62,747 nucleotides of DNA from a bacterium (GCA_021789915.1 JAJYIV010000003.1:1-62747), one strand, 5' to 3'; positions 3,314 to 38,966 are shown, counted from the first letter of the stretch. Program-made: numbers and translations. Notes: generated by a model not told the origin, from the letters alone.

Positions 3314-4462
3314 CTATGCGGCCGTCAAGGCCTTACGCTCTCCGGCCGGAAAAACCAGCGGGAACGATTCGGTTCGCGGCCCGTGCACCACAACGGATTC
3401 CATGCGCGCGGCGCCGATGACGTCCGGCGACGGAACGATCGGGGCAAGAGCGGCGAGTTCCGCGCTCGAGGCCGGATGCTCCGCGGCCCAGCGGACGAGT
3501 CGCCCGGCCATCCAATCCGCCCGGGCGGCGGGAAGCCCGGCTCCGAGGCGCAGCACTTCGGAGAGGGCGTCGCCTGCCTTTGGCTGGGCGAACCAAGATT
3601 TGAAATACGCGAGGGAAATGCCCGTGCGGCCGAGAGATTGCTCGATGCGGGCATCGTCGACGTCGCCTTCGGCCCAGGCGGCCATCGTGCGCGACGCTCC
3701 TTCCATGGCCTTCGACAGGGCGGAAAGCCCGGGGGTCGTTCGTACGAGTTCCGCCGTTCGCCGGGCCTCCATCGACCGGTTGACGCGACGATACACGTTT
3801 TCCGAAACCAGGACGTCCCTCACGAAGCGCTCATGCGCCCTCACGATTTTTTCAATCTCCGCCGGAGGCTGAACGGAACGCTTGACCTGCACCAAGCGGA
3901 TCACGTCGATGGCCGGACCGGCTTCGGCGGCGCGGTAGCGGATGTCCACGAGATCGATTTTGTCGCCCGCGTCCAAACGGTCGTTGGTGGCAATCAGCTG
4001 GCGCTGGTCCGTGGACGAGCGCGTCGCGGCGAAATCCTGTTCCAGGCGCCGGATGACCTGCCGCGTCGCCTCCACGCCGTCGAACGCCTCCGTCGCATAG
4101 CGCGTCATCGGTTCGTCGCCTACGGTCAGCTGCTCGTCTCCCATGAACGCGAGCAGGGCGTCCTTGAACGCGCGCTTGAACCGTTCAGGGTTCGCGATCA
4201 AGCCGGCGTACAGCGCGCGTCCGAGCGTGTTTTGCAGCCGGGCTTCTTCCAACCGGAGTTTGCCGGCCCGATCGGCGGTGGACAATGCCAGAAACCGCTG
4301 CGCCATGTCGATCGTGAAGAGCTGCTCGTTGAAGCCTTCCTGCCACTCGCGCGTATCGCCGACGAACGTCAGGGATTCCTCGATCGTTTTGGGGACGCCC
4401 TTCTCGCGGCGACTCGTGACCAGGCGCAAGCGAGGCGACGACTCGGGATGAGCGGATTCCAT
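3314..4462 (-). CDS. hypothetical protein with a possible Mrr-like PD-(D/E)xK nuclease core
   Basis: Long ORF in coding-like composition, with the start trimmed to MESAHPESS. The segment GDKIDLVDIRY...GPAIDVIRLVQVKRS resembles the D...D/(E/Q)xK core of Mrr-type restriction endonucleases. Motif-level resemblance only. Confidence 0.55.
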   Translation of the reverse strand: MESAHPESSPRLRLVTSRREKGVPKTIEESLTFVGDTREWQEGFNEQLFTIDMAQRFLALSTADRAGKLRLEEARLQNTLGRALYAGLIANPERFKRAFKDALLAFMGDEQLTVGDEPMTRYATEAFDGVEATRQVIRRLEQDFAATRSSTDQRQLIATNDRLDAGDKIDLVDIRYRAAEAGPAIDVIRLVQVKRSVQPPAEIEKIVRAHERFVRDVLVSENVYRRVNRSMEARRTAELVRTTPGLSALSKAMEGASRTMAAWAEGDVDDARIEQSLGRTGISLAYFKSWFAQPKAGDALSEVLRLGAGLPAARADWMAGRLVRWAAEHPASSAELAALAPIVPSPDVIGAARMESVVVHGPRTESFPLVFPAGERKALTAA

Positions 4463-4519
4463 ACGCGTGCCAGCGTACTCTTTCGGGGGAAAAAATGCAC
4501 GTCGTTTTCTCGTCCGGCC

Positions 4520-4549
4520 TTGACGGATCGCGGCGCTTTCCCCCATTAT
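4520..4549 (+). promoter_or_regulatory. putative sigma70-type promoter of topA, possibly giving a leaderless or near-leaderless mRNA
   Basis: TTGACG (4520-4525), an 18-nt spacer, then CATTAT (4544-4549). The topA ATG at 4557 lies only ~8 nt downstream, and no SD is visible. Confidence 0.35.
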
Positions 4550-4556
4550 CTAGTCC

Positions 4557-6962
4557 ATGCCGCAGCACCTCATCATCGTCGAGTCGCCGACGAAGGCCAA
4601 AACCATCGGGAAATTCCTGGGGAAGGACTACCGCGTCCTTTCCTCTTTTGGGCATGTCCGCGACTTGCCGAAATCCAAGACCGGCGTGGACACGGCGCAT
4701 GATTTTGCGCCGACGTACCAAGTGCCGCCGGAGAAAAAGGACAAGGTGAAGGAGCTCATTGCGGCCGCGTCGCACGCCGACGACGTCATCCTGGCGACCG
4801 ACGAAGACCGCGAGGGCGAGGCCATCGCCTGGCACATCGCCGAAGTGCTGAAGCTCGATCCTGCGACGGCCGAGCGCATCACCTTCCACGAAATCACCCG
4901 CCCCGCCATCGAGGCGGCCCTGCGGCATCCGCGGCACATCGATACGAATCTCGTGAACGCGCAGCAGGCGCGCCGCATCGTGGACCGCCTGGTGGGCTAC
5001 GAGCTGTCGCCGCTCCTGTGGGAAAAGATCCGCCGCGGGCTCTCCGCCGGCCGCGTCCAATCCGTGGCCGTGCGCCTCATCGTGGAGCGCGAACGCGAAC
5101 GCCAGGCGTTCCGCGTCGACGAATACTGGACGGTGGAAGCGCAGCTGTCCAAGGACGGCCAGGGCTTCGAGGCCAAGCTGTTCGCGATCGGCGGCCGCAA
5201 GCTCGAAAAGCTGGAGATCAAAACCGAAGCGCAAGCCAAGGCGATCGAAGAGGCGGCGCGCGGCTCCCGCTTCGTCGTAACCGCGGTGGAGACGAAAGAC
5301 GTGGCCAAGGCGCCGCCGACGCCGTTCACCACCTCCACGCTGCAGATCGAAGCCAACAACCGCCTGGGCTTCGGCGCCAAGCAGACCATGGCGCTGGCGC
5401 AGAAACTGTACGAGACGGGCCGCATCACCTACATGCGCACGGACTCGCTGAACCTGGCCGAACCGTTCCTGGCCGAGGCGCAGGCCTACATCGGGGAGGC
5501 GTTCGGCGCGCAGAACGCGCCCGGCGCCAGGCGATACAAAACCAAGGCCAAGGGCGCGCAGGAGGCGCACGAGGCCATCCGCCCGACGGACGTGCGGGCC
5601 ACGCCGGAGGCGCTGCAAAACGACCTGGACCAGAAGCTCTGGAAAATCTACGACTTGATTTGGCGCCGGACGCTCGCGTCGCAGATGCCCTCGGCCGTGC
5701 TCGAGCGCGTGTCCGTGGACCTCGAGGCCAACGCGGTCCTTCCGCCTGCTGGCGTCAGGACAACGCCGCCTCCGGCCGGGACCAACCGCGTCGGCTTCCG
5801 CGCCTCGGGCCACTCGGTGAAGACGCCGGGCTACCTGAAGGTCTACCGCGGCGCGCAGGAAAAACTGCTTCCGCCGCTCGCGAAGGGCGACGAGGCGAAG
5901 CTTGAATCGCTTGCGTCGGTGCAGCACTTCACCGAACCGCCGCCGCGCTACTCCGACGCCACCATCGTCAAGGCGATGGAAGAGCTCGGCATCGGCCGCC
6001 CGTCCACGTACGCGCCGACCATCTCCACGATCGAGGCGCGCGGCTATGTCGAACGCGACGACAACCGGAAGCTCAGGCCGACGGACGTCGCGTTCACGGT
6101 GACGGACTTGCTCACCGCGCACTTCCCGCACGTCGTCGACTACGCCTTCACGGCGAACATGGAACAGGGCCTTGACAACGTGGAGGAAACCGGCGAGTGG
6201 GTGCCCATGCTCAAGGATTTCTACGGCGACTTTCACGCCAAGGTGGAAGAAAACGAGAAGCGCTTGAAGCGCGAGGATTTCGCGGTGAACCGCGATCTTG
6301 GCGCGGACCCGAAGACGGGCCTGCACGTGTTCGTGCGCACGGGACGCTTCGGACCGTTCGTGCAGCTCGGCGACGCGCCGGCTGCGCCGCGTTCCTCCCC
6401 TGCCAAGGGGAGGTCAGGTGGGGTTGCCGCCGCGCCGGCGCCCAAGCCCAAGCGCGCGTCGCTTGCGGGCGAGATGACGGCCGATACCGTAACGCTCGAA
6501 CAGGCGCTCGTGCTGCTGTCCTTGCCGCGCACGGTCGGCGCCATGGAGAACGGCGACGAAATCATCGCCAACAAAGGGCGCTTCGGCCCGTACCTCTCCG
6601 CCATGGGCGGATCCGCCTCCGGCGGAAAGGCCGTCGCGACGGCCACCATCGCGCCGCCGCTGTCGCCATATACGATCACGGAGGAAGAGGCGCGCCGCGT
6701 GCTGGCGGAATCCATCGCGCGCAAGAAGGCCGCGGCCACGCCGCTCAAGCAGCTCGGCGTCGACCCGGTCTCCGGCGGAAAGATGCTCATCAAGACCGGC
6801 CGCTTCGGAGCGTACGTCACGGACGGCACGACGAACACCTCGCTCGGCAGGAAGCTGGCCGTCGAGGACGTGACGGATGCGATCGCGTCGGAGCTGCTGG
6901 AGAAGAAGCGCCACGCGCCCAAGCGCGCGTGGGGACGTCGGAAGAAAACCGAAGGCGCCTAG
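4557..6962 (+). CDS. topA: DNA topoisomerase I
   Basis: TOPRIM N-terminus (IIVESPTKAKTI, LATDEDREGEAIAWH), the catalytic region (ITYMRTDS) and C-terminal GRFGPF/GRFGPY/GRFGAY repeats. Confidence 0.95.
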   Translation: MPQHLIIVESPTKAKTIGKFLGKDYRVLSSFGHVRDLPKSKTGVDTAHDFAPTYQVPPEKKDKVKELIAAASHADDVILATDEDREGEAIAWHIAEVLKLDPATAERITFHEITRPAIEAALRHPRHIDTNLVNAQQARRIVDRLVGYELSPLLWEKIRRGLSAGRVQSVAVRLIVERERERQAFRVDEYWTVEAQLSKDGQGFEAKLFAIGGRKLEKLEIKTEAQAKAIEEAARGSRFVVTAVETKDVAKAPPTPFTTSTLQIEANNRLGFGAKQTMALAQKLYETGRITYMRTDSLNLAEPFLAEAQAYIGEAFGAQNAPGARRYKTKAKGAQEAHEAIRPTDVRATPEALQNDLDQKLWKIYDLIWRRTLASQMPSAVLERVSVDLEANAVLPPAGVRTTPPPAGTNRVGFRASGHSVKTPGYLKVYRGAQEKLLPPLAKGDEAKLESLASVQHFTEPPPRYSDATIVKAMEELGIGRPSTYAPTISTIEARGYVERDDNRKLRPTDVAFTVTDLLTAHFPHVVDYAFTANMEQGLDNVEETGEWVPMLKDFYGDFHAKVEENEKRLKREDFAVNRDLGADPKTGLHVFVRTGRFGPFVQLGDAPAAPRSSPAKGRSGGVAAAPAPKPKRASLAGEMTADTVTLEQALVLLSLPRTVGAMENGDEIIANKGRFGPYLSAMGGSASGGKAVATATIAPPLSPYTITEEEARRVLAESIARKKAAATPLKQLGVDPVSGGKMLIKTGRFGAYVTDGTTNTSLGRKLAVEDVTDAIASELLEKKRHAPKRAWGRRKKTEGA
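6393..6428 (+). repeat. in-frame copy of the hairpin repeat element inside topA
   Basis: tcctcccc-tgccaa-ggggagg-tcaggtgg-ggttgcc. It encodes SSPAKGRSGGVAA in the linker between C-terminal repeats. Confidence 0.65.
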
Positions 6963-7021
6963 AAAAAACAAACGCGTTCCGGCAAGCGTCGGGGCGCGTT
7001 TTCCCGTTCGCGAAAAGAAAA

Positions 7022-7049
7022 CCCGCGTCCCTCAAACGAGGGAAGCGGG
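7022..7049 (-). terminator. intrinsic terminator of the kinase-vWA-PK-like operon
   Basis: cccgcgtccctc-aaac-gagggaagcggg (12-bp stem, 1 mismatch). On the minus strand it is followed by ttttcttttcg. Confidence 0.6.
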
Positions 7050-7055
7050 CGCGCG

Positions 7056-8090
7056 TCAACGGACGCCGTCTTCCATGAATGCCCAAAACGCGTTCATGGC
7101 GGCGGCAAGCAGTGCGCCGTCCAGGCACAGTTCGTCGCACAGCAGGAAGCGGCGGTAGCCGATATCCGCGAGCCAGGCAAGCTCGGAAAAATCGGCGCAG
7201 GACGGCACGCGCGGCTGCGCCAGTTTGGCCGCCGCTTTGCGGCGGCCGTCGTCATCGGGATGGCTTTGGACGAAGGCCAATCCGCGCTTCACGTCCGCCA
7301 GCAACGGCTGCATGACGGACAGCAGCAGGCGCGATCCCACCATCGCCTCCGGATCCGCGCGCAGGATGGCGCGGACGGCCCGGGGCATATGGTGTGGGCG
7401 GCCGATCTCGACGTACAGGTCGCCTCGAGCGGCGACGAGCGTCCGCCCGTCCCGCTTGCGGAACTCTTGCGTCGCCCGGCGCACGCCGCGCTCGTTTTCG
7501 ATCTTCAGCATCAGCTCGGCGTCGCGGCCGGCAAGCTCGAGGAAGGCATGAACGTCTGCCTCGCTCTCGACGTAGGAGAGGAACCAGCGACGGATGCCGG
7601 ACCGTCGCACGGTCTCGATTTTGGCTTTCTCCTCGTCCGTGAACAGCGGGCCGAGGAGAGTGAAGGACGGATGCCGGACATGCAGGGACTCTCCCGCTTG
7701 AACGGCATAGACGGGCCCGTGCGTGCGGCCCGGAGCGAATACGAGCCGGCGCCCGCCGTCTTCCAGGCGCTCGAGCAGCGCCGCGTCTTCCCCGGCCTTG
7801 AAGAGCACCGGCTGCGGCAGATCCGCCACGCGGACGGCGTGGTTGAGCGTCACCACGAGCCGGTCGGGGTCTGGATGGACTTCGGCCACGCGTGGCTGCC
7901 GCCCTTTTACGTCGAACCACAGCGGAACGCTTGGCTGCGCGGCATCGGCCGCCGTCAGCTCCTCCTCCACTTCCCGAGGCGCCGTCATCGCGCTGTTCAA
8001 TCGGATGCCCGCCAGGCGAACATCGGATGCAAAGCGCGCGAAGTGCGGGAACGTGGGGAGGAGCGTGGCAAACAGGTCGACGCCGGTCAC
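7056..8090 (-). CDS. divergent pyruvate-kinase-like TIM-barrel protein without a regulatory C-domain
   Basis: PK A-domain motifs appear in the canonical order: IRLNSA, FDVKGRQPR, LKIENERGV, VAARGDLYVEIG, FLLCDELCLDG. The protein is 344 aa. Its GTG start overlaps the vWA stop (GTGA). Confidence 0.7.
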   Translation of the reverse strand: MTGVDLFATLLPTFPHFARFASDVRLAGIRLNSAMTAPREVEEELTAADAAQPSVPLWFDVKGRQPRVAEVHPDPDRLVVTLNHAVRVADLPQPVLFKAGEDAALLERLEDGGRRLVFAPGRTHGPVYAVQAGESLHVRHPSFTLLGPLFTDEEKAKIETVRRSGIRRWFLSYVESEADVHAFLELAGRDAELMLKIENERGVRRATQEFRKRDGRTLVAARGDLYVEIGRPHHMPRAVRAILRADPEAMVGSRLLLSVMQPLLADVKRGLAFVQSHPDDDGRRKAAAKLAQPRVPSCADFSELAWLADIGYRRFLLCDELCLDGALLAAAMNAFWAFMEDGVR

Positions 8091-9025
8091 ATCAGGTCTC
8101 CGCCGCGCGAGCCGCGCGGCGGACGATGCATCGTGGAGCGCCCGTCATTCGCGGACGGCACGCTTCCGTGCACCGTCCGCAAAGCCTCGTAGGTGGACGC
8201 CACCTGCGCGGGCGTCTGCCGACCTTCGATCTCCTCGCGAAAGTACGCGATGCGGTCCGTCACCTTGGCGAGAAGGCCGAAGAGGACGTCCACCACCCGA
8301 CCGGGTTCCGACAAGGGAACCACGCGGTCCTTGCCGACGAGGCGCTCCCAGCCGCCCGGCGTGCAGTTTTCGTACGGCTTGAGCACCACGAAGACCTCGA
8401 AGCGTTCCATCAGCTCGCGGAAAATCCGTTCCGTCGTAAGGCCGTTTGCCTCGCCGCCATCCGGCAGGAATTCCCTTGCTTCCCGCGCCGAGAAGGCATG
8501 AGGCATTTCGTCGGTGATGAAGATGATCACCGGCCGCTCCGCGTTGGGGGTCCTGACGCAGCGCAGCACGTAGAACGCCATGAGCTCCGAGGACTCCCCG
8601 TTGTTTCCGCCGCCGTTGTTGGTGTGCACGAGCTGCTCGAGCTGGCCCTTGGCTTCTTCGCCCTGCGCGAAGGGGCGGGCCTGCAGCGGATAGTCCGCCT
8701 GCACCTTCACGTCGTCGAACGCCAGATAGCTCACCGCGTAGCGCGGCCCGAGATATTCGGTCCGGCACTCGTGATCCAGGTAGGGCAGCTTGCCGGCGAT
8801 CACCGCCGTCCAGTCGCCCATGGAACCCGTCTGGTCCAGGACGATGAGCAGCGGCGCCGGACTGTCGGTCTCGAGCAAGGCCGGCAGTACGTCGCGGACC
8901 GTCTTGCGCTCCGCGCGCGCTTCTTCGTAGCTGCGGCTCTGCCGATCCTGGTAGGCGCGACGGGCGTCGTCGAACGTATCCGCGCCGCTCCAGGTTGCCG
9001 GCGTATAGTCTCCGCCTTCGGACAT
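8087..9025 (-). CDS. von Willebrand factor A (vWA) domain protein
   Basis: MIDAS-like DQTGSMG, then GGGNNGES and IFITDE. AAGGAG lies 6 nt upstream of the ATG. Confidence 0.8.
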   Translation of the reverse strand: MSEGGDYTPATWSGADTFDDARRAYQDRQSRSYEEARAERKTVRDVLPALLETDSPAPLLIVLDQTGSMGDWTAVIAGKLPYLDHECRTEYLGPRYAVSYLAFDDVKVQADYPLQARPFAQGEEAKGQLEQLVHTNNGGGNNGESSELMAFYVLRCVRTPNAERPVIIFITDEMPHAFSAREAREFLPDGGEANGLTTERIFRELMERFEVFVVLKPYENCTPGGWERLVGKDRVVPLSEPGRVVDVLFGLLAKVTDRIAYFREEIEGRQTPAQVASTYEALRTVHGSVPSANDGRSTMHRPPRGSRGGDLM

Positions 9026-9055
9026 CGGATGCTCCTTTTCTCTCGGTCGTGCGGG

Positions 9056-9841
9056 TTAGGGAACGGTCCCGGAAAGGTCGATGATCAAGCGGCCGAAGCA
9101 CTCCTGCCGTACGTGGGAAATCGTCTGGATGAGGTTTTCCCTGCCCCAATGGGGCCGGTTCAAGGGATCCGTCGCCGTCAAGCGGCCGAGGAACTCCTTG
9201 AGCGGCCGCGGAACTTGGCGCGGCACTTCGCGGCGGGCGACGCGGTCTAGATCCCCTCCGCAGAGGGCGTATACGATCGTCTTGCCCAAGCTGAAAAGAT
9301 CCGTTTCGGGGATGAGCGGATTGCGCGAATCCGCCTGCTCCGGCGGGACGAAGAGATCCGTCAACCCTTTGTTGCCACTCGCGCGCGTGGGGCGGATGGA
9401 CGCCAGGCCGAAATCCACGAGGACCGCGGTCCGGCCGTTTTCTTCCGCCATCACGTTCTGCGGCTTCACGTCGCCGTGGATGATGCCGTGCCGATGCACG
9501 TATTCGAGCGTGCGCAGCAGCATGTCGAACATCCACGCGATCCGCTCGGCGTCCAGGCGGTCCGTTTCCACGAGCTTCGCCATGGTGGAGCCGCTGATCC
9601 AGCGTGAGATGAGCGCGAGCCGGCCGTCCGGCAGGCGGATGACATCGCGGACGGACGCTACGCCGAAGTGACCAAGATTCCACGTCGCGAGCGCTTCTTG
9701 CAGCAGGATCTCGTCGGATTCTGGCGAGACGTAATGCCCGTGCTTCAGGCACACGGGACCGCCCGTCAACACATGTTCGGCCTTGTACGTCGTGCCGAAC
9801 CCGCTCGGCGGCCGTCCCTTTGCGCCCTCAAGCTCCTTCAA
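9056..9841 (-). CDS. stand-alone Hanks-type Ser/Thr protein kinase (non-RD)
   Basis: Glycine loop GFGTTY, VCLK lysine, catalytic loop HGIIHGDVKPQN, DFG and PPE. There are no extra domains. The predicted start is TTG, so the exact start is uncertain. Confidence 0.85.
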   Translation of the reverse strand: MKELEGAKGRPPSGFGTTYKAEHVLTGGPVCLKHGHYVSPESDEILLQEALATWNLGHFGVASVRDVIRLPDGRLALISRWISGSTMAKLVETDRLDAERIAWMFDMLLRTLEYVHRHGIIHGDVKPQNVMAEENGRTAVLVDFGLASIRPTRASGNKGLTDLFVPPEQADSRNPLIPETDLFSLGKTIVYALCGGDLDRVARREVPRQVPRPLKEFLGRLTATDPLNRPHWGRENLIQTISHVRQECFGRLIIDLSGTVP

Positions 9842-9923: not shown

Positions 9924-11432
9924 ATGCCCGAAAACGCGCGCACGTACGAGCAGCTCGCGGAGCTCATCCGCACCCACTACCAGAACCCGGACCTGGCCCT
10001 GGTTGAGCGCGCCTACCGCCTGGCCGAGGAATCGCACCGCGAAGCGAAGCGCCTCACCGGGCACCCGTACATCGTCCATCCGCTTGCCGTCGCCTACAAG
10101 CTGGCGGAAATGGGACTGCACCTCCATGTCGTCGCGGCCGGATTGCTGCACGACGTCGTCGAGGACACCGGCCTGACGGTCGAGGACGTCCGCCGGCATT
10201 TCGGCGACGACGTCGCCGGGCTCGTGGACGGCGTGACGAAGCTCAAGAAAGTCCGCTACCGCGGCGAAGACCGGTACGTGGAAAACATGCGCAAGATGTT
10301 CCTTGCCATGGCGGCGGACGTGCGCGTCGTGTTCATCAAGTTCGCCGACCGCCTCCACAACCTGCAGACGCTCTACGCCCAGCCGATACACAAGCAGCAG
10401 CGCACGGCCAAGGAAGCGCTTGAAATCTACGCGCCGATCGCCAGCCGCCTGGGCATGGCCGAGATGAAGGGGGACCTCGAGGATCTCGCCTTCGCCTATC
10501 TCCTGCCGAAGGAATACGAGCGCATTCGATCCGTGATGGACACGAAAATCCAGACGCAGGGCGCGTATGTCAGCCGCGTCATCGACGAGACGGAGCGCCT
10601 GGCCGACGCGGCCGGGCTGGCCGATGCGTCGGTCAGCGGCCGCGTGAAGCGGCTGTACAGCCTCTACAAGAAGCTGCTCAAGCACGGCAACGACTTTTCC
10701 AAGATCTACGATTATATCGCCGTGCGCGCCATCGTGCAGGACGTCGAGGAATGCTACGCCGTGCTCGGCATCTTGCATCAAAAATGGAAGCCGCTGCCCG
10801 GGCGCATCAAGGATTACATCGCCCAGCCCAAGCCGAACGGCTACCAGTCGCTGCACACGACCGTGTTCGGCGACGACGGCCACATCGTCGAGTTCCAGAT
10901 CCGCACGCAGGAGATGAACGAGCTGGCCGAGTACGGCGTCGCCGCGCACTGGCGGTACAAGGAAGGCGGCTCCAAGCCCATCCGGAACATGCGCTGGATG
11001 GAAGAGCTGGCCAATATCCAGAAGGAGCTGGCCAACCGGAAGGACTTCCTGGAGCAGCTCGAGATCATGAAGATCGACGCCTTCAAGGACCGCATCTTCG
11101 TGTTCACCCCCAAAGGCGACGTCATTGATTTGCCCGAGGGGGGGACGCCCGTGGATTTCGCGTACGCCATCCACACGGAAGTCGGCAACGCGTGCGTGGG
11201 CGTCCGCGTCAACGAGCAGGCCGGCTCGCTCAACATGGCGCTGAACTCCGGCGACATCGTGGAGATCCTCATGGACAAGAACCGCAAGGGACCGAATGCC
11301 GACTGGCTCAAGTTCGCCAAGACGCACCACGCGCGGCAGAAAATCAAGGACGCGACGCGCAGCGGCCTCAAGCGGTGGCTGGCCAATGCCTTCCGCGGCA
11401 AGCCGAAGGCCGCGGCGCAGACGAAAACATGA
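9924..11432 (+). CDS. rel: RelA/SpoT-homolog (p)ppGpp synthetase/hydrolase (HD + synthetase + TGS, no ACT)
   Basis: HD motif HPLAVA...LHDVVEDT, synthetase motifs DYIAVRAIV and YQSLHTTV, and TGS motif IFVFTPKGDVIDLPEGGTPVDFAYAIH. Confidence 0.9.
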   Translation: MPENARTYEQLAELIRTHYQNPDLALVERAYRLAEESHREAKRLTGHPYIVHPLAVAYKLAEMGLHLHVVAAGLLHDVVEDTGLTVEDVRRHFGDDVAGLVDGVTKLKKVRYRGEDRYVENMRKMFLAMAADVRVVFIKFADRLHNLQTLYAQPIHKQQRTAKEALEIYAPIASRLGMAEMKGDLEDLAFAYLLPKEYERIRSVMDTKIQTQGAYVSRVIDETERLADAAGLADASVSGRVKRLYSLYKKLLKHGNDFSKIYDYIAVRAIVQDVEECYAVLGILHQKWKPLPGRIKDYIAQPKPNGYQSLHTTVFGDDGHIVEFQIRTQEMNELAEYGVAAHWRYKEGGSKPIRNMRWMEELANIQKELANRKDFLEQLEIMKIDAFKDRIFVFTPKGDVIDLPEGGTPVDFAYAIHTEVGNACVGVRVNEQAGSLNMALNSGDIVEILMDKNRKGPNADWLKFAKTHHARQKIKDATRSGLKRWLANAFRGKPKAAAQTKT

Positions 11433-11459: not shown

Positions 11460-13127
11460 TTACGCGGCGTGACGCGGCCGCGATGCCGCGCCTGGCGCCG
11501 GAACGGACGGCGGACGGACGAGAAAATCCCTGAACGTGATTTCCGGCCGCGTCGCCGTCGCCGGCAGGATGATGCGGAACCGGATGGCCGAATCGTCGCC
11601 CCAGTCCGAGAGCCGTGCCGTAATGTCCGTCGGCTGTTTCGTCATCGCTTGGACGTCGACGGCAAGACGATGCTTCAACGCGTCAAGCGCGGCGTTCCCC
11701 TTCCCCGCGTCCAGCGACCGGAAAAACGATTCCCAATCCTTTTCGTCCAAATCCGTCAGGCGCTGCAGCACGGCGTCGCACACGCGCTCGACCAGACGGC
11801 GCTCCTTGCCCGACGCAAGGGCCGGCGCGACGCGAACCTCTTCGAACGGCGGCAGGTGTCCGTGGCGCAACAGAGGCTTCAGCGCGCGCTCGTAGGCGTC
11901 CTTCGCCTCCTGCGTCCCTTGCGAGAGCGATGACACGTCCGCTTCCGACGTCCCTTTCACATCCGCGGCAAGGATGCTCGACGAGAGACGATCGTCTTCG
12001 TCGCGATACGCTTCCTCCTTCCGGCCCGCTTCCTCCGCCATCGGCCGCAGCCGCTTCGCGAACCGGATGGAGCCGCCGAACAAGTGGATGCCGAAGGACG
12101 GGACGCCGAATTTTCTCACGCGCGCATCGCGTCGGCGACGATAGAACTCCGTCAGCCGACGCACGCGGCTGGCCATGGCCGTCAACGGCACGTCAATCAG
12201 CTGGTACACGAGTAGGGCGTCGGCCCCGTCGGAGGCGCCAAGAATCTTCCTCCATGCATCAACGGCCTCGCTAATGTCCGCCATCGCATGGCGCAAGGTT
12301 TCGGTCTTCGCACCGGGCACGGAAAAAAGACGACCGTAGAGCGTGTCGTCCTTCAAGGATCGTTCCATCTGCATCCCCGAACGTCCTTCGCGGAGAAACG
12401 CCAACACTTCATCTTTCACCTGCTGGGTCGCATCACGCTCCCGCCAGCGGCCGGCGGCAGGAACTGGCTCGACGCCGTCGAAGAGATGGAACACGGCGTG
12501 GTTGATGAAATGCTGGCGCTCGTGGGCGATAACGGAATCCGGCACGGACGCATGATATCCAAGCCGTATCAAAAGAAGAGGCACCGTCGGCCCGCTGAGC
12601 AATTTCACCGCCGCCGCGCCGTGATACATGCCGCCGCTCGACTGCGATCGCGGAAGCGAAGTGCCGAGCTTCACATTAAAGCGGTCAAAATCGCCGCGGT
12701 CTTCAAACTCCATGAGGAAGTATCCTTCCTTCTGTTTGAGCTCGACATGAGCGCGCGGCGGCTCGCCGACTTCCTTGCGGAAGATGTACACCCCGAATTC
12801 ATACGGCGACTTGACGTCCGACGACAGACGCTCTTCCAAGACCATATGGTCCTTCAGCAGCCGCTCCGCTCGCCTGCTTTCCGCGCGCTGCTCACGATAC
12901 GTCGCAAGACACTGCGCAAACCTGTCGCGCACCTTTTCCGGCAGATATGGCGCTTCGCGGGCGATCAGCTCTTCGTCCGTTTCCTTCGGCTCGTCGGGAC
13001 CGGAAAACAGCCGCTCGATGCGCATGGCGGCATGCGCCACCTGGTGGCGGCGCTCGAGCAGACGTTCGATGCGGCCTTTTCCCTCCTCCGGACGTTCAGC
13101 GGAAACGCGTGGGAACGATTCTGACAT
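11460..13127 (-). CDS. hypothetical protein with an HExxH (putative zinc-peptidase-like) motif
   Basis: 555-aa ORF downstream of parB with a coiled-coil-rich N-terminus. VIAHERQHFINHAVFH contains HExxH(xxxH). No family recognised. Confidence 0.55.
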   Translation of the reverse strand: MSESFPRVSAERPEEGKGRIERLLERRHQVAHAAMRIERLFSGPDEPKETDEELIAREAPYLPEKVRDRFAQCLATYREQRAESRRAERLLKDHMVLEERLSSDVKSPYEFGVYIFRKEVGEPPRAHVELKQKEGYFLMEFEDRGDFDRFNVKLGTSLPRSQSSGGMYHGAAAVKLLSGPTVPLLLIRLGYHASVPDSVIAHERQHFINHAVFHLFDGVEPVPAAGRWRERDATQQVKDEVLAFLREGRSGMQMERSLKDDTLYGRLFSVPGAKTETLRHAMADISEAVDAWRKILGASDGADALLVYQLIDVPLTAMASRVRRLTEFYRRRRDARVRKFGVPSFGIHLFGGSIRFAKRLRPMAEEAGRKEEAYRDEDDRLSSSILAADVKGTSEADVSSLSQGTQEAKDAYERALKPLLRHGHLPPFEEVRVAPALASGKERRLVERVCDAVLQRLTDLDEKDWESFFRSLDAGKGNAALDALKHRLAVDVQAMTKQPTDITARLSDWGDDSAIRFRIILPATATRPEITFRDFLVRPPSVPAPGAASRPRHAA

Positions 13128-14857: not shown

Positions 14858-15382
14858 TCAAAGCAGGCCGAAGTGGCGCAGAGCCGCTTCAATTCCGGGC
14901 TTTTTCCTTATCCATGCCAGATCGATCAACGCCAGAGGCGTGTCCCACCACACGCGGGAGAACTCCTGGTCATGCGCGTCGAGATGGAACACGGTGTCCG
15001 GACGTATGCGCGCCAAAAAGAAACGGATCTCTTGGCCCACATACGTTCTTCGGTCTTCGGGGAGAGAATGCAGGTAGGCCTCGGGCCAGTCATAGCGAAA
15101 GGCGCCCGGGGCCTGCCCGATGAACGCGTACTCCTTTTTTGTGATGCCCAACTCTTCCCGGAGCTCGCGCGCGGCGGCATCTTCGGGGGTCTCGCCTGGG
15201 TCGATGCCACCTTGAACGGTTTGAACCGCCCGTCTTCCGGCCCCGGACGTCGGATGGAGACGCTGGCAAAGCAGCACGCGGCCTCCGCCATCCGTAACGA
15301 CAACGCCAACGGCAGGACGATAGCGCTTGGCAAATGCCCCAGACATAGCGGGGGCATGATAGCATGCGGACGCCATTCCCAC
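14858..15382 (-). CDS. NUDIX hydrolase (RppH-like)
   Basis: Nudix box GGIDPGETPEDAAARELREELGI. The true start may be an internal Met (MSGAF..., ~15346). Confidence 0.8.
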   Translation of the reverse strand: MGMASACYHAPAMSGAFAKRYRPAVGVVVTDGGGRVLLCQRLHPTSGAGRRAVQTVQGGIDPGETPEDAAARELREELGITKKEYAFIGQAPGAFRYDWPEAYLHSLPEDRRTYVGQEIRFFLARIRPDTVFHLDAHDQEFSRVWWDTPLALIDLAWIRKKPGIEAALRHFGLL

Positions 15383-24097: not shown

Positions 24098-24126
24098 TTG
24101 ACGGAGGGTTACGAGTATGCTATCAT
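24098..24126 (+). promoter_or_regulatory. sigma70-type promoter for the 24174 gene
   Basis: TTGACG, a 17-nt spacer, then TATCAT. Confidence 0.55.
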
Positions 24127-24173
24127 CCATCCTTCAGTTTTTGCGCTGGAGACACATTAAAACCTTCTTCCCT

Positions 24174-25859
24174 ATGACCAAGAAGATTCTCTTGGCGGCC
24201 GCCGGCCTGCTCGTGTCCGTCAACCCGCTTCTGCCGTCCGTCTCCGCGACCGGCAACGGGTGGGCGCCCGCTCCCGCCGCCGCCGCCTGGAGCTACAACG
24301 GCTATACCGTTCAGCAGATCGCCTCTTCTTCCCGCATCATCGGGCCCTTGGCCATCGGCGGCGCGGTTCTTACGGCCGAGGCTCCCGCCGCGTGCCTGGG
24401 TGACGCCTGCAACGCCTTGACGGTCTCCGTGTACAGGAACGGCGTTCGCACGCAGGCAACCGGCATCCCGTCTTCCGCGCTTTCCGCCGACCGTTACGCG
24501 AAGAACGGCAACCGCTTGATCTACGCCAAGCCGACGGCCGACGGCGTGTTTGCCGTCTACGAGCTGTCCCTCGACACCGGCATCGAGACCACGCTTTTCT
24601 CCGGCGTGTCCATTCCCGGCGGCAGCAACGTCGATGTCATGGCGGACCACGCGGGCACGTACTTCCTGACGGCGGACATCCGCTTCTCCAACGCCGACAC
24701 GGCGTTCACCCAGCGCGCCCTGTACGTGTGGGACCCCGCCGCGCGCGCCGCGCGCCCGGCCGTCGGACCCGCCAACGAGGAAGACCGTCGCTTCGAGCTT
24801 CTCGACGTCCGCAACGGCGTCGCGCTCGTCACCATGGGATTTCCCGACGGTTCCCGCCAGCTGTGGCTGGAAGATTCCAACAACATCGATTACGACGGCG
24901 GCAGGGCGACGGCCGTCCCGAAGACGTGGGTGGACGCCCATGGCACCATCCAGTACGGCCGCTTCCTGCCGGACGGCGGCATCGAGTTCTTCGAAAACTT
25001 CTCGCATGAAACATGGCATCCCGGCGACGCGGCTCCGACGGCCGGCGGCCAGCAGGTCACGTGGTATCATCCGGCGTCCGAGGCCGTGAAACTCGACGGC
25101 GCCTACCTGGCGTGGACCAATGCCGCGGATGAGCTGTACCTCAGCGACGGCACGACCGTGCGCGACGTGGGCGTCGCCCCGGGGAACACGTTCGCCCTTG
25201 AGGGCGGCACGCTGTATTTCCACGGCGCATCGTATGACATCGCCCATCAATCGACGTCCGACATGCCGTTTCCCGTAACGGACGTCCATGACATTTCCCT
25301 GGCCGGCGTCGACCAGGCGCACAACGTCTATCTGTCGTCCGGCTCCGTGAGCCTGAAGGTCGGCTACGGCACGTCGCCAGCCGTCTCCGATCCACAGCAC
25401 GTTTACTGGCGCGGCGCGGACGGCCACGTCTATGTCGCCGCCCTCTCGGCCAATCCCGCCTATAGCGCCCAGGCGCTGCACACGGCGGATGACCCGACGG
25501 TCTATCTCGTGACGGCGGACGGCATCCGCCACGCCATCCCGAACGAGCAGGTGTATTTCTCCTGGTTCCCGGACTGGTCAAGCGTGAAGGTCGTCTCCGC
25601 GGACACGCTGGCGAGCCATCCATTGGGCCGTCCCGCCACGTTCGCCGTCGGCGCCCTGCTCAAATTGTCCGGCGATACGCGTGTGTATGCGCTCGCCAAG
25701 GACGGGACGCTGCGCCACATCATGAACGCGGAGACGGGCTACGGCCTGTTCGGAGAAACATGGTATAGCCGCATCATCACCGTTTCCCCGGAGACCTTCA
25801 CGGCCTATCCGCTCGGCGCCCCGCTCATGTCGGCAGCCGACGGCGCGAACGCGTTCTGA
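24174..25859 (+). CDS. secreted hypothetical protein (beta-rich, propeller-like composition)
   Basis: Signal peptide MTKKILLAAAGLLVSV..., then a long ORF with coding-like codon bias. No family recognised. Confidence 0.6.
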   Translation: MTKKILLAAAGLLVSVNPLLPSVSATGNGWAPAPAAAAWSYNGYTVQQIASSSRIIGPLAIGGAVLTAEAPAACLGDACNALTVSVYRNGVRTQATGIPSSALSADRYAKNGNRLIYAKPTADGVFAVYELSLDTGIETTLFSGVSIPGGSNVDVMADHAGTYFLTADIRFSNADTAFTQRALYVWDPAARAARPAVGPANEEDRRFELLDVRNGVALVTMGFPDGSRQLWLEDSNNIDYDGGRATAVPKTWVDAHGTIQYGRFLPDGGIEFFENFSHETWHPGDAAPTAGGQQVTWYHPASEAVKLDGAYLAWTNAADELYLSDGTTVRDVGVAPGNTFALEGGTLYFHGASYDIAHQSTSDMPFPVTDVHDISLAGVDQAHNVYLSSGSVSLKVGYGTSPAVSDPQHVYWRGADGHVYVAALSANPAYSAQALHTADDPTVYLVTADGIRHAIPNEQVYFSWFPDWSSVKVVSADTLASHPLGRPATFAVGALLKLSGDTRVYALAKDGTLRHIMNAETGYGLFGETWYSRIITVSPETFTAYPLGAPLMSAADGANAF

Positions 25860-37670: not shown

Positions 37671-38966
37671 TCAGCGGGCGGACGTCCCGACGTACGCCCT
37701 GATGAGCGCGTGGCGCGCGCGGGCGACCTCCTGCTTCCCCGACCCGCTCTTTCGCAAGCGCCAGGAAGGATCCGGCAGGTCGCCCAGGGAGGCATCGTGG
37801 AAGCACTTGGCGTAGTGCGTCCACTGCCGCGAGGCGGAGGGCGCCGTGCCGAGCAGCCGGTCGACGAGACGCTGGGTCGGCAGCGGCCGCAGCGCCATGT
37901 TGAAGCCCCGCAGCTCGTCGAGCACCATTTGCGCTGAGAAGACGCGCGAGAGGCGGCGGACGGCGGAAGCGATGGGCGAACCCTTCACCGTGCTCCAAAT
38001 CAAGGCACGCTCGAGATCCGTGCGCACGTACCGGCGCTGCTCCTCGCGCGACAGCCGCACCCTCAGGCGCTTCGCTTGCGCCAGGAAGTTCTCGTCGTAC
38101 GCGTTTGCGTCCAGCTGGCGCCGGATGAAGTCGGCGCCGAAACGCTCCTCGAGGCCGAAGTCGATGATGAACTGGAAGAACTCCTTACCGAGAACGCGAC
38201 CGCTCGGCTGGGCGAGGAGCATTGCCTCCGCTTCGTCGCGGGTGAACGCCGTACGCCCGAGCACCTTCAGCGCCTCGTGGGCGAAGAAAACATGTCCCTT
38301 CCGCACCGTCCACGCGAGGAAGCGCTCGGTCAGATTCGTGTTTTCGCCCGGCTTGAAAGCCGCGAGCAACTGCTTCTCCGCGTCCGGCATTTCTCGCAGC
38401 GTCCATCGGACGCGCTCGACGCCGCCGTCGTACTCGATCTGGGCCTTTATGAACTGCCGGGGAACGAACGCGGGCGGAGAATCAGGAGGCGCGTCCCTCG
38501 CCTCGAGAGACCCCATCAACTTCTCCATGACCGAAGGGAAGCTCAGGTCATCGCTGAATTCCACAGCGAGTCTCCCCAGATCGCCCGCCGCGACGAGCAT
38601 GCTGTGCAGAACGCTCGCGTCGCCGAGGTCTCGAAGAATGCGCGCGAGCGGATAGTCGAGCTTGACGCGGTCTTTCAACGCGGGCGCGCGGGCGAGCGGA
38701 TGGCGGTATAGGCAGTCGCGGGCCGCCTGCAGCGGCGTGAAGCCGTTGGTGCGCGCCGCTTCCTCGATGCGCCTGCGCAGGTCAGTCTCGTCGAGGCCGA
38801 CGTCGTTGTGAGCCGACCGCTCGAGCATCTCCCACAGTGCGAGCACGGCCTCGAATGCCGTGCGCGTCTTCTTCTTCCACAGGACGATGAACAGCGGCGG
38901 GAGCTCGGGCGCGAGCACGGGCAAGGACGACGGATCGGGCGCGGGCTTCTTGCTTCGGGGAGCCAT
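37671..38966 (-). CDS. hypothetical protein (431 aa, helical)
   Basis: Long ORF with coding-like bias, divergent from the 39121 gene. No family recognised. Confidence 0.55.
   Translation of the reverse strand: MAPRSKKPAPDPSSLPVLAPELPPLFIVLWKKKTRTAFEAVLALWEMLERSAHNDVGLDETDLRRRIEEAARTNGFTPLQAARDCLYRHPLARAPALKDRVKLDYPLARILRDLGDASVLHSMLVAAGDLGRLAVEFSDDLSFPSVMEKLMGSLEARDAPPDSPPAFVPRQFIKAQIEYDGGVERVRWTLREMPDAEKQLLAAFKPGENTNLTERFLAWTVRKGHVFFAHEALKVLGRTAFTRDEAEAMLLAQPSGRVLGKEFFQFIIDFGLEERFGADFIRRQLDANAYDENFLAQAKRLRVRLSREEQRRYVRTDLERALIWSTVKGSPIASAVRRLSRVFSAQMVLDELRGFNMALRPLPTQRLVDRLLGTAPSASRQWTHYAKCFHDASLGDLPDPSWRLRKSGSGKQEVARARHALIRAYVGTSAR

Follow-up and report, generated by a model that had tools for sequence, protein, structure and literature searches.

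The 62,747-nt bacterial sequence GCA_021789915.1 JAJYIV010000003.1:1-62747 (hereafter the window, meaning the whole stretch of DNA that was analyzed) carries on its minus strand, between positions 7056 and 9841, a three-gene operon which codes for a stand-alone Hanks-type Ser/Thr protein kinase, a protein with a von Willebrand factor A (vWA) fold, and a shortened member of the pyruvate kinase (PK) family, which we call mini-PK. The module is real and is conserved among bacteria of the Candidate Phyla Radiation (CPR) and DPANN archaea. It has not been described in the literature searched, and it joins kinase/vWA signalling to a PK-family enzyme. Its invariant core is the vWA/mini-PK pair, and relatives of this pair reside within clusters of genes for the supply of nicotinamide adenine dinucleotide (NAD). 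We tentatively propose, with a confidence somewhat short of even, that the module codes for a phospho-regulated vWA/mini-PK phosphotransferase complex which is tied to NAD(P) cofactor supply and which is switched by the kinase in CPR bacteria and DPANN archaea.

All sequence elements that an initial annotation of this region had listed were found in place. Compared to that annotation, the following is new: the vWA/mini-PK pair as the core of the module, the NAD gene clusters of its relatives, a J domain on the related kinases, the covariation of the C-terminal tail of the vWA protein with the kinase, and the presence of the module in DPANN archaea.

Conservation of the three-gene module

Homology searches returned 982 matches for the mini-PK and 178 for the vWA protein, with 40-60% sequence identity; wherever the source was named, it belonged to the Patescibacteria/CPR. 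The first three genomic contexts (from Uhrbacteria, a 1.24-Mb Patescibacteria contig, and Daviesbacteria) agreed in the three genes and in their order, and had wholly unlike flanks. A scan of one genome per species yielded 78 loci, including many from DPANN archaea (Woese-, Pace-, and Nanoarchaeota) and one on the complete chromosome of Archaeon GW2011_AR15. A further 18 loci were obtained from IMG/VR. The counts given below refer to the resulting 96 non-redundant loci from CPR and DPANN, for which the window's three proteins served as tblastn queries.

All three genes are present in 86/96 loci. By arrangement, the 96 loci comprise 74 with a tight series of kinase, vWA, and mini-PK genes, 8 with all three genes and an inserted gene or a second vWA paralogue, 4 with a divergently transcribed kinase gene, and 1 in which all three are present in an unclassified arrangement. 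The contig ends before the kinase gene in 3 loci, the vWA and mini-PK genes occur without a kinase gene in the locus in 2, the barrel gene stands alone in 3 (two of which are fragments), and it is located at a contig end in 1. The adjacency which the initial annotation had put forward as a candidate module is thus kept across bacteria and archaea, tightly in 74/96 loci. Synteny in 86/96 loci with unrelated flanks led us to reject chance adjacency, and it is supported that the three genes represent one conserved functional unit. A rough neighbour-joining (NJ) tree places the archaeal sequences in a main clade, which lies within the bacterial ones, and in a second clade that is small and divergent. 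This pattern suggests one or two transfers of the cassette, followed by vertical descent.

The open reading frames (ORFs) of ~78 loci were clustered in a search for a fourth gene. A recurrent fourth gene was rejected for the window's subfamily, because beyond the three genes just an AbrB-PhoU gene (11 DPANN loci), a PP2C gene (5 loci), and an ABC ATPase gene (5 loci, probably coincidental) came up. The PP2C phosphatase gene (PF00481, 1.8e-13) adjoins the module in 5/96 loci. These are CPR loci (L015:6995-7873, L017:2846-3658, L020:2852-3595, L053:2949-3725, and L066:2819-3670), and in the clade of L017 and L020 the kinase and PP2C genes are divergent from the vWA and mini-PK genes.

Two observations concern the records themselves. 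A mini-PK relative is encoded on each of the 18 IMG/VR contigs (L084-L101, 6-436 kb), and the whole triad on 17 of these. Because of the contig size and the presence of the same triad, it is at least as likely that these are misclassified CPR/DPANN fragments rather than viruses. Also, the taxonomic labels of many metagenome-assembled genome records from third-party assemblies conflict with their tree position among CPR and DPANN, and look unreliable. Such labels are 'Gammaproteobacteria' (L009, L014, L059, L073), 'Methanosarcinales' (L050, L076, L078), 'Spirochaetales' (L060, L061, L065), and 'Saccharibacteria' (many records).

The core pair and its association with NAD genes

An exhaustive profile search with the mini-PK retrieved only 156 representatives at E<=1e-30, and these include a second tier of ~300-aa proteins. 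This sister subfamily, which is found in Woesearchaeota, Anaerolineae/Chloroflexi, Planctomycetes, and others, aligns with the window family over the full length (hhalign E 2.5e-74, 32% identity). In every context inspected, a homologue of the vWA protein is encoded immediately upstream of the sister mini-PK, with or without a kinase; homology of this upstream gene was confirmed by hhalign in two cases (1e-35 and 4e-52). Because the pair occurs without the kinase in Chloroflexi and Planctomycetes, vWA plus mini-PK is the invariant core, and the kinase is an added component.

As to function, the NAD context of these relatives is the most telling clue. In Anaerolineae, the gene order is archaeal-type NMNAT - vWA - mini-PK - NadE, where NMNAT stands for NMN adenylyltransferase and NadE for NAD+ synthase. 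Among 82 metagenome loci, all of them from this one lineage, the vWA gene was found in 77, NMNAT in 53, and NadE in 39, with the counts being limited by contig ends. Planctomycetes show NMNAT - vWA - mini-PK - NadE as in Anaerolineae. More extended clusters are found elsewhere. Locus L187 has the order nicotinate phosphoribosyltransferase (NaPRT) ... NadE - Nudix - NMNAT - vWA - mini-PK - NadA. Two clusters from Woesearchaeota include a kinase. One of them (L104) reads PncB - PncA - NadE - Nudix/NMNAT - Hanks kinase - vWA - mini-PK - radical SAM - aminotransferase - NAD kinase, and its Hanks kinase is 35% identical to that of the window. The other (L185) reads NadE - NMNAT - Hanks kinase - vWA - mini-PK - Nudix - ADP-ribosylglycohydrolase. 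Within the window's own subfamily, one CPR locus (L017) carries, on a whole contig of 11.3 kb, the genes for NAD kinase, PncB, PP2C, and J-kinase and, divergent from these last two, for vWA, mini-PK, ADP-ribosylglycohydrolase, NadE, and NadA. Homologues of the pair are thus embedded in operons for NAD synthesis and salvage (NMNAT/NadM, NadE, PncB, PncA, NadA, NAD kinase) in at least four distinct lineages. In contrast, NAD genes are not adjacent to the module in the window and in most CPR loci. We know of no described NAD pathway that holds a component with a PK fold or a vWA fold.

Structure of the operon

The initial annotation had recognized the three minus-strand genes as one unit, and our analysis agrees that they form a single operon, in which the kinase, vWA, and mini-PK genes follow each other head to tail, joined by a spacer with a ribosome-binding site and by a stop/start overlap, and closed by a terminator (Table 1). 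All three genes have the codon-position GC pattern of real genes (GC3 0.82-0.85 in a genome with 64% GC).

Table 1. Features of the three-gene module in the window. Coordinates are counted from the first nucleotide of the window.
Feature	Position	Strand	Properties	Basis
Kinase gene	9056-9841	minus	261 aa, TTG start, Hanks Ser/Thr kinase, non-RD	Pfam Pkinase
Intergenic spacer kinase/vWA	9026-9055	minus	30 nt, AAGGAG at 9032-9037	read from sequence
vWA-fold gene	8087-9025	minus	312 aa, ATG start, MIDAS	AF2 and Foldseek
Stop/start overlap vWA/mini-PK	8087-8090	minus	GTGA	read from sequence
Mini-PK gene	7056-8090	minus	344 aa, GTG start, A barrel and small B lid	PF00224 and fold
Intrinsic terminator	7012-7050	minus	hairpin 7021-7050, then UUUUCUUUU at 7012-7020	
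9-bp tandem repeat across kinase start codon	9826-9874	minus	AAGGAGCTT-like	Tandem Repeats Finder
Note: MIDAS, metal ion-dependent adhesion site; AF2, AlphaFold2.

The kinase gene stops with TAA (9056-9058), and the AAGGAG that had been annotated within the following spacer is found 6 nt upstream of the vWA ATG. At the next junction, the TGA stop codon of the vWA gene shares letters with the GTG start codon of the mini-PK gene. This previously noted overlap is consistent with translational coupling of the two genes. The terminator hairpin begins 5 nt past the mini-PK stop codon and is followed by the T-run; its stem spans 12 positions (11 paired, 1 mismatch), and it has a folding energy of -26.3 kcal/mol (z -3.64), with 0/200 shuffled sequences folding as well. 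A consensus terminator scan overlooked this hairpin because its stem carries one mismatch. A promoter consensus scan upstream of the kinase gene did not reveal a sigma-70-like site.

The mini pyruvate kinase

The 344-aa protein had initially been described as carrying the A-domain motifs of PK without a C domain, and fold, residues, and length bear this out. It matches PF00224 with 8e-8 and 32.1 bits (cut-off 30), over residues 139-233 only, and the yeast PK 1a3w with 6.5e-6. The AF2 model has a predicted local distance difference test (pLDDT) score of 94, and the top 50 PDB matches in Foldseek are all pyruvate kinases (E 1.5e-16 to 9e-15, template modelling score TM(query) 0.62-0.71). The initial annotation had left a choice between PF00224 and HpcH/CitE for the barrel. 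We assign it to the PK family and rejected an identity as HpcH/HpaI aldolase or CitE, since all top 50 fold matches and all 60 listed sequence matches are PKs. The sole matches outside this family are weak ones to KDPG aldolase (E ~0.01).

According to HMMER and profile alignments to 1a3w, 7oo1, and 7ueh, the mini-PK is collinear with PK for the motifs R-x-N, D-x-K-G-x-x-x-R, K-I-E, A-R-G-D, S/T-x-x-L-x-S, P-x-x-A-[DE], and L-x-x-E. Conservation was scored on an alignment of 48 family members (A2), and the PK set of catalytic residues, which the initial annotation had singled out for scoring, is retained across it: R30, N32, D60, K62, R67, K196, E198, G223, D224, S253, D319, and E320 are invariant or near-invariant. 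We take the rabbit M1 counterparts to be R72, N74, D112, K114, R119, K269, E271, G294-D295, T327, and E363.

The B lid is an all-beta insertion (~residues 67-138) between the D-V-K-G-R-Q-P-R strand and helix 152-164, and it is shorter than the canonical one. The protein terminates after the last barrel helix at residue 344, and PF02887 is not matched. Family members have a length of 296-400 aa, compared to ~470-530 aa for PKs. On the PK equivalog model NCBIfam TIGR01064, the mini-PK scores 28.6 bits with a cut-off of 306.4.

Of the four K+ ligand positions, two are altered, S76 and T113 (rabbit numbering) being replaced by A34 and V61. The canonical G-P-E is represented by G-R64-Q65, which suggests, by analogy, a built-in positive charge in place of K+. 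Such a built-in charge reportedly has a parallel in K+-independent PKs.

A helical-hairpin insert of ~35 aa (residues ~259-295) is located between the S-R-L-L-L-S and P-S-C-A-D motifs. It is found in the window mini-PK and in part of the family (e.g., P0005, P0010, P0024, P0028, and P0063).

The full PK catalytic set under strong constraint, together with the PK fold, raises the question whether the mini-PK is simply a minimal, perhaps the sole, glycolytic PK of its hosts. The C domain would then have been replaced by control in trans, with the vWA protein as a regulatory subunit and the Hanks kinase as a switch, and the NAD clusters would reflect co-regulation of energy and cofactor metabolism. 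Several pipelines (IMG, PGAP) do label members as 'pyruvate kinase', and the patchy occurrence of canonical PK in CPR and Nanobdellota leaves space for a divergent substitute. Canonical PK was found in about a third of CPR genomes, and divergent enzymes might, according to the authors, have evaded the hidden Markov models of that survey (PMC7304191). Nevertheless, we consider this explanation rather unlikely. The sister mini-PK of large-genome Chloroflexi (a 4.4-Mb contig) and Planctomycetes is encoded between NMNAT and NadE and not among glycolytic genes, and these organisms would be expected to own a standard PK. Members also occur in Pacearchaeota (L064), an order reported to be devoid of upstream glycolysis and hence of a glycolytic source of phosphoenolpyruvate (PEP), and the score on the PK equivalog falls far below its cut-off. 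Because its relatives sit inside NAD-cofactor gene clusters, the mini-PK is probably not an ordinary glycolytic pyruvate kinase.

The vWA protein

The motifs DQTGSMG, GGGNNGES, and IFITDE, on which the initial annotation had based a MIDAS-type vWA protein, are present, and the predicted structure has a vWA fold with an intact MIDAS. By sequence, the protein has no match in Pfam, NCBIfam, or PADLOC at E<=1 and none in the PDB, and a profile of 50 vWA-protein sequences also retrieved nothing from the PDB at E<=10. A sequence-based vWA assignment was dropped for this reason. The AF2 model (pLDDT 89, predicted TM score 0.87) gave 154 PDB matches at E<=1e-3 in Foldseek, and the top 50 are all vWA-type domains. 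They include integrin beta I-like domains, ANTXR1/2, NorD, and VWF A3 (E 2e-7 to 3e-5), as well as SpaC; the integrin beta I-like, ANTXR, and NorD domains are the best ones. TM(query) is 0.34-0.46 for the top matches and ~0.43-0.46 for the integrin beta I-like domains.

In an alignment of 50 vWA-protein sequences (A1), D64, S68, E144, D172, and E173 are invariant, and T66 is kept at 90% or more. Those of the MIDAS map to its three loops: D64-Q-T66-G-S68 follows strand 58-64, E144 precedes helix 146-156, and D172 follows strand 166-171. In integrin beta I-like domains, the second MIDAS loop likewise provides a Glu, as does E144 here.

Both termini are informative. An acidic/aromatic N-terminal peptide (MSE-GDY..W.G or MYSW..DTS.W.G) is conserved in kinase-linked and kinase-less vWA proteins alike, so that it more likely serves the relationship between the vWA protein and the mini-PK. 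The C-terminal tail behaves differently. In the window it is disordered and basic, and it contains a G-R-S-T motif with S297, which is kept at 90% or more in the window's vWA family. The kinase-linked vWA proteins (from CPR, DPANN, L104, and L185) have such a disordered basic tail with G-[KR]-S-T, whereas a CxxC...CxxC zinc ribbon forms the C terminus of those Chloroflexi vWA proteins that occur without a kinase. The tail thus covaries with the presence of the kinase, which may be taken as a hint at the kinase target.

In two loci (L062:3908-5854 and L077:3865-5899), a tandem pair of vWA paralogues separates the kinase gene from the mini-PK gene, and one of the two copies in L077 has DNTRSMG as its MIDAS serine region.

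The kinase

The characterization of the kinase as a stand-alone, non-RD Hanks kinase holds: GFGTTY, VCLK, HGDVKPQN, DFG, and PPE are visible in the translation, Pfam Pkinase (PF00069) is matched with 3.9e-23 and 82.6 bits (cut-off 31.7), and the Pfam search did not detect a second domain. In an alignment of 74 sequences (the window kinase and 73 homologues from related loci), the catalytic Lys (VCLK), the alpha-C Glu, HGDxKPxN, DFG/DYG, and PE are kept in 67-71 sequences. HGD in place of HRD, the non-RD signature, is a family trait (67/74).

Most relatives have a kinase of ~340 aa with an N-terminal J domain, a feature which the initial annotation had not noted and which has been lost in the window. 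The J domain was detected by tblastn in 66/96 loci (DnaJ, PF00226, 4e-10 in the L003 kinase). Its HPD tripeptide is intact in 34 of the 74 aligned kinases; in the others, the J domain is degenerate, absent, or swapped for a Cys-rich N-terminal domain (L010, L016). These two loci are from Uhrbacteria (L010:3775-5052 and L016:3772-5049). They encode 425-aa kinases in which another N-terminal domain of ~170 aa replaces the J domain, and their Cys motifs (CENKRCGEFP...CLYCEH) resemble a zinc ribbon.

Relative to the family, the window kinase is N-terminally truncated. It is devoid of the J domain and of the beta-1 strand, and its G-loop has Ser at the first conserved glycine. With an in-frame stop codon 20 codons upstream of the TTG start, and with position 9924 as the start of the divergent relA/spoT-type gene, the upstream region is too short for a J domain, and no trace of one was found in the intervening DNA. 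The 9-bp tandem repeat across the start codon (5.1 copies with a period of 9) encodes ELK repeats and supplies a Shine-Dalgarno-like AAGGAG upstream of the TTG. Upon comparison of the N termini in the family, the ELK repeats coincide with the J-domain/kinase junction of the relatives. The repeat looks like a scar of J-domain loss.

That most relatives have a J domain fused to their kinase would be accounted for by a chaperone-type system in which Hsp70 is brought in by the J-kinase and the vWA protein binds peptides as a co-chaperone, so as to assemble or remodel the mini-PK or another client. A co-chaperone role of vWA domains is known from MoxR ATPases (PMC7824862). We regard such a system as very improbable: the HPD, which is required for Hsp70 stimulation, is retained in fewer than half of the aligned kinases, and the J domain of the remaining ones, including that of the window, is degenerate, replaced, or absent. 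Moreover, the vWA/mini-PK pair occurs without any J domain or kinase, and no Hsp70 or AAA+ gene is linked to it.

The similarity of the kinase to kinases of defence systems was also considered. PADLOC reports matches to PD-T4-6 (8e-26) and MAD6 (3e-21), which cover the generic kinase domain only; on the NCBIfam MAD6 model, the window kinase scores 68 bits with a cut-off of 460. PADLOC gave no match for the vWA protein or the mini-PK, and no other component of PD-T4-6 or MADS is present. These matches do not assign the module to a known defence system. Weak matches to the TCAD9 domain were seen for the window kinase (E 0.055) and the L003 kinase (7.5e-4).

This leaves a more general proposal, namely a stress or conflict module of the TerY-P type in which a PK-like effector rewires or drains metabolism linked to PEP, ATP, or NAD, for example upon host contact or virus attack. 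It draws on the pairing of vWA protein and kinase with the addition of PP2C in five loci, on the PADLOC and TCAD9 similarities of the kinase, on the crossing of the module between domains of life, and on its presence on the 18 IMG/VR contigs. The ADP-ribosylglycohydrolase and Nudix genes which adjoin the module in L017 and L185 fit as well, since a role of vWA domains as chaperone components has been reported for NAD/ADP-ribose conflict systems (PMC9503650). We nevertheless judge this proposal to be improbable. The module occurs as a single copy per retrieved locus and groups by lineage in the NJ tree (Uhrbacteria together, and archaea mostly so), unlike patchy defence islands; it contains neither a hypervariable domain nor an effector-toxin domain; and the flanks are housekeeping genes (topA, relA/spoT, IF2, RuvA). 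PADLOC matched no more than the generic kinase domain, and the version found in Chloroflexi is flanked by NMNAT on one side and NadE on the other.

Proposed role of the module

The reading that we tentatively favour is that of a kinase-switched phosphotransferase complex in the service of NAD(P) supply. The C domain of an ordinary PK provides tetramer contacts and allosteric control. The mini-PK would be a PK-family phosphotransferase that has been reduced to the catalytic A barrel and the lid and that keeps the residues for PEP/pyruvate, Mg2+, and nucleotide phosphate; it would run a PEP-linked phosphoryl transfer. We infer that the MIDAS-vWA protein would form a complex with it, as an obligate regulatory or adaptor subunit which would stand in for the lost C domain and which would use an acidic residue to bind either the enzyme or a client. 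In CPR and DPANN, the non-RD Hanks kinase, which is of the constitutively active type, would have been added upstream. It would phosphorylate the Ser/Thr motif in the disordered vWA tail and thereby switch the complex, and PP2C, where it is encoded alongside, would reverse this phosphorylation. As judged from the neighbourhoods of the homologues, the role would be in NAD(P) synthesis or salvage and not in ordinary, allosterically controlled glycolysis. Most likely, the module would provide PEP-driven ATP, or a PEP/ATP-dependent phosphoryl transfer, for the ATP-consuming steps catalyzed by NMNAT, NadE, and NAD kinase.

A more far-reaching version, which we put forward as a doubtful possibility, is that the vWA/mini-PK pair is an unrecognised enzyme unit of NAD(P) metabolism, responsible for PEP/ATP-dependent phosphotransfer or ATP regeneration for NMNAT, NadE, and NAD kinase, with the MIDAS-vWA protein taking part in catalysis or sensing. 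This unit would be conserved from Chloroflexi and Planctomycetes to CPR and DPANN, would have been put under Ser/Thr phosphorylation control in ultra-small symbionts (by the Hanks kinase, with or without J domain and PP2C), and would have moved between domains as an intact three-gene cassette.

Several points weigh against our reading. A NAD gene is found within 6 kb in only 3/96 loci of the window's subfamily, which by a rough estimate is no more than expected by chance, and none lies beside the triad in the window. Because adjacency in this subfamily is at chance level, the link to NAD rests on the sister subfamily and on one CPR locus (L017); for the window genome it is an extrapolation from homology. 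The conserved PK active site is equally compatible with a plain pyruvate kinase, and the mini-PK could be the missing PK of those CPR genomes which are devoid of a canonical one. The window kinase, having lost beta-1 and one G-loop glycine, may be impaired or weakened. Finally, the vWA assignment comes from a predicted structure and from the positions of motifs rather than from a sequence match.

Relation to described systems

That the combination is absent from described systems, as had initially been suspected, agrees with the literature searched. We found no description of the module; papers of the Aravind group (PMC9503650, PMC7824862) mention vWA domains in other contexts. Publications on pyruvate kinase in CPR/DPANN, on vWA proteins, on J-domain kinases, and on NAD biosynthesis gave no account of it either.

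The closest enzyme is pyruvate kinase (EC 2.7.1.40), with which the mini-PK shares the (beta/alpha)8 barrel, the lid after strand 3, the collinear motifs, and the positions for PEP, Mg2+, and nucleotide. It differs by its smaller lid, by the lack of the C domain with its tetramer contact and effector site, and by always having a vWA partner. The mini-PK thus falls short of pyruvate kinase proper on two defining features, as it has no C domain and scores below the family cut-off.

The TerY-P triad reportedly consists of the TerY vWA protein, a PP2C phosphatase, and a Ser/Thr kinase, and is said to have been defined by Anantharaman, Iyer and Aravind in 2012. The initial annotation had seen a PK-fold phosphotransfer enzyme in the third slot of such an arrangement, that of PP2C. 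This is not borne out, as the core is the vWA/mini-PK pair with an added kinase, and as PP2C is additional in five relatives. What is shared is a gene for a cytoplasmic MIDAS-vWA protein beside one for a stand-alone Hanks kinase (30 nt apart), joined by PP2C in a minority of loci. However, PP2C is absent from the window and from most loci, the PK-family enzyme is obligate, the pair also exists without the kinase, and the relatives of the module are found in the context of NAD genes and not of tellurite-resistance (ter) genes. TerY itself was set apart without a direct pairwise comparison, on the grounds that the vWA protein matches no curated vWA model at E<=1 and is assigned by fold only.

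In the Arn system of Sulfolobus, the vWA protein ArnB, with its partner ArnA, is phosphorylated by the Hanks kinases ArnC and ArnD and controls archaellum expression. The likeness to the module lies in a cytoplasmic vWA protein as the likely substrate of a dedicated Hanks kinase, with reversal by a phosphatase; in our case, phosphorylation of the vWA tail is suggested by covariation. The module differs in having no FHA partner and no link to motility genes, and in that the partner is an enzyme. Despite a comparable kinase/vWA pairing, it belongs neither to the TerY-P triads nor to the Arn system.

Neighbouring and inserted genes

As judged from translations, the operon is flanked by topA (4557-6962, plus strand) and by the divergent relA/spoT-type gene (9924-11432, plus strand). 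No PP2C gene is found among the three genes of the operon or their neighbours, and the 62.7-kb window contains no second PK-like gene and, as far as found, no NAD gene. Pfam annotation of 20 other ORFs of the window revealed housekeeping genes only.

Four large ORFs have no Pfam match and a coding-type GC3: 3314-4546 (minus, 410 aa), 11460-13127 (minus, 555 aa; just past the relA/spoT gene that diverges from the kinase gene), 24117-25859 (plus, 580 aa), and 37671-38966 (minus, 431 aa). A stand-alone Nudix hydrolase gene (14858-15382, minus, Pfam 3e-21) is located beside parA and parB at ~5 kb from the triad. This is too distant for a linkage to be claimed, even though Nudix genes join the module in the NAD clusters of relatives.

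In 11 loci, mostly labelled DPANN, a gene for an AbrB/MazE-PhoU fusion protein of ~320 aa (Pfam PhoU, 2.8e-9) is found near the triad (L029, L049 at 7079-8038, L050, L056, L059, L067, L068, L070, L076, L078, and L082). It is mostly directly adjacent, being either divergent from the kinase gene or just downstream of the mini-PK gene, and its product may be a phosphate-responsive regulator of the operon. In two archaeal loci, a protein of 287-292 aa without a Pfam match is encoded between vWA and mini-PK (L070:4242-5120 and L078:5072-5935). A different 287-aa insert is found between kinase and vWA in L076 (4141-5004).

Implications

If the mini-PK family is not glycolytic, reconstructions of the energy metabolism of CPR bacteria and DPANN archaea would be affected, as members are already labelled 'pyruvate kinase' by IMG and PGAP. 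In such reconstructions, PK has a patchy distribution and has even been reported from lineages without upstream glycolysis. Substrate-level ATP formation is central to the arguments for the host dependence of these organisms. For NAD metabolism, the position of a PK-fold enzyme and its obligate vWA protein between NMNAT and NadE suggests that one of the most thoroughly studied cofactor pathways has a component which has gone unrecognised. The module is also a documented case in which an entire operon has passed between CPR bacteria and DPANN archaea. Being both simple and widespread, it lends itself to studies of Ser/Thr-kinase signalling in cells with the smallest known genomes.

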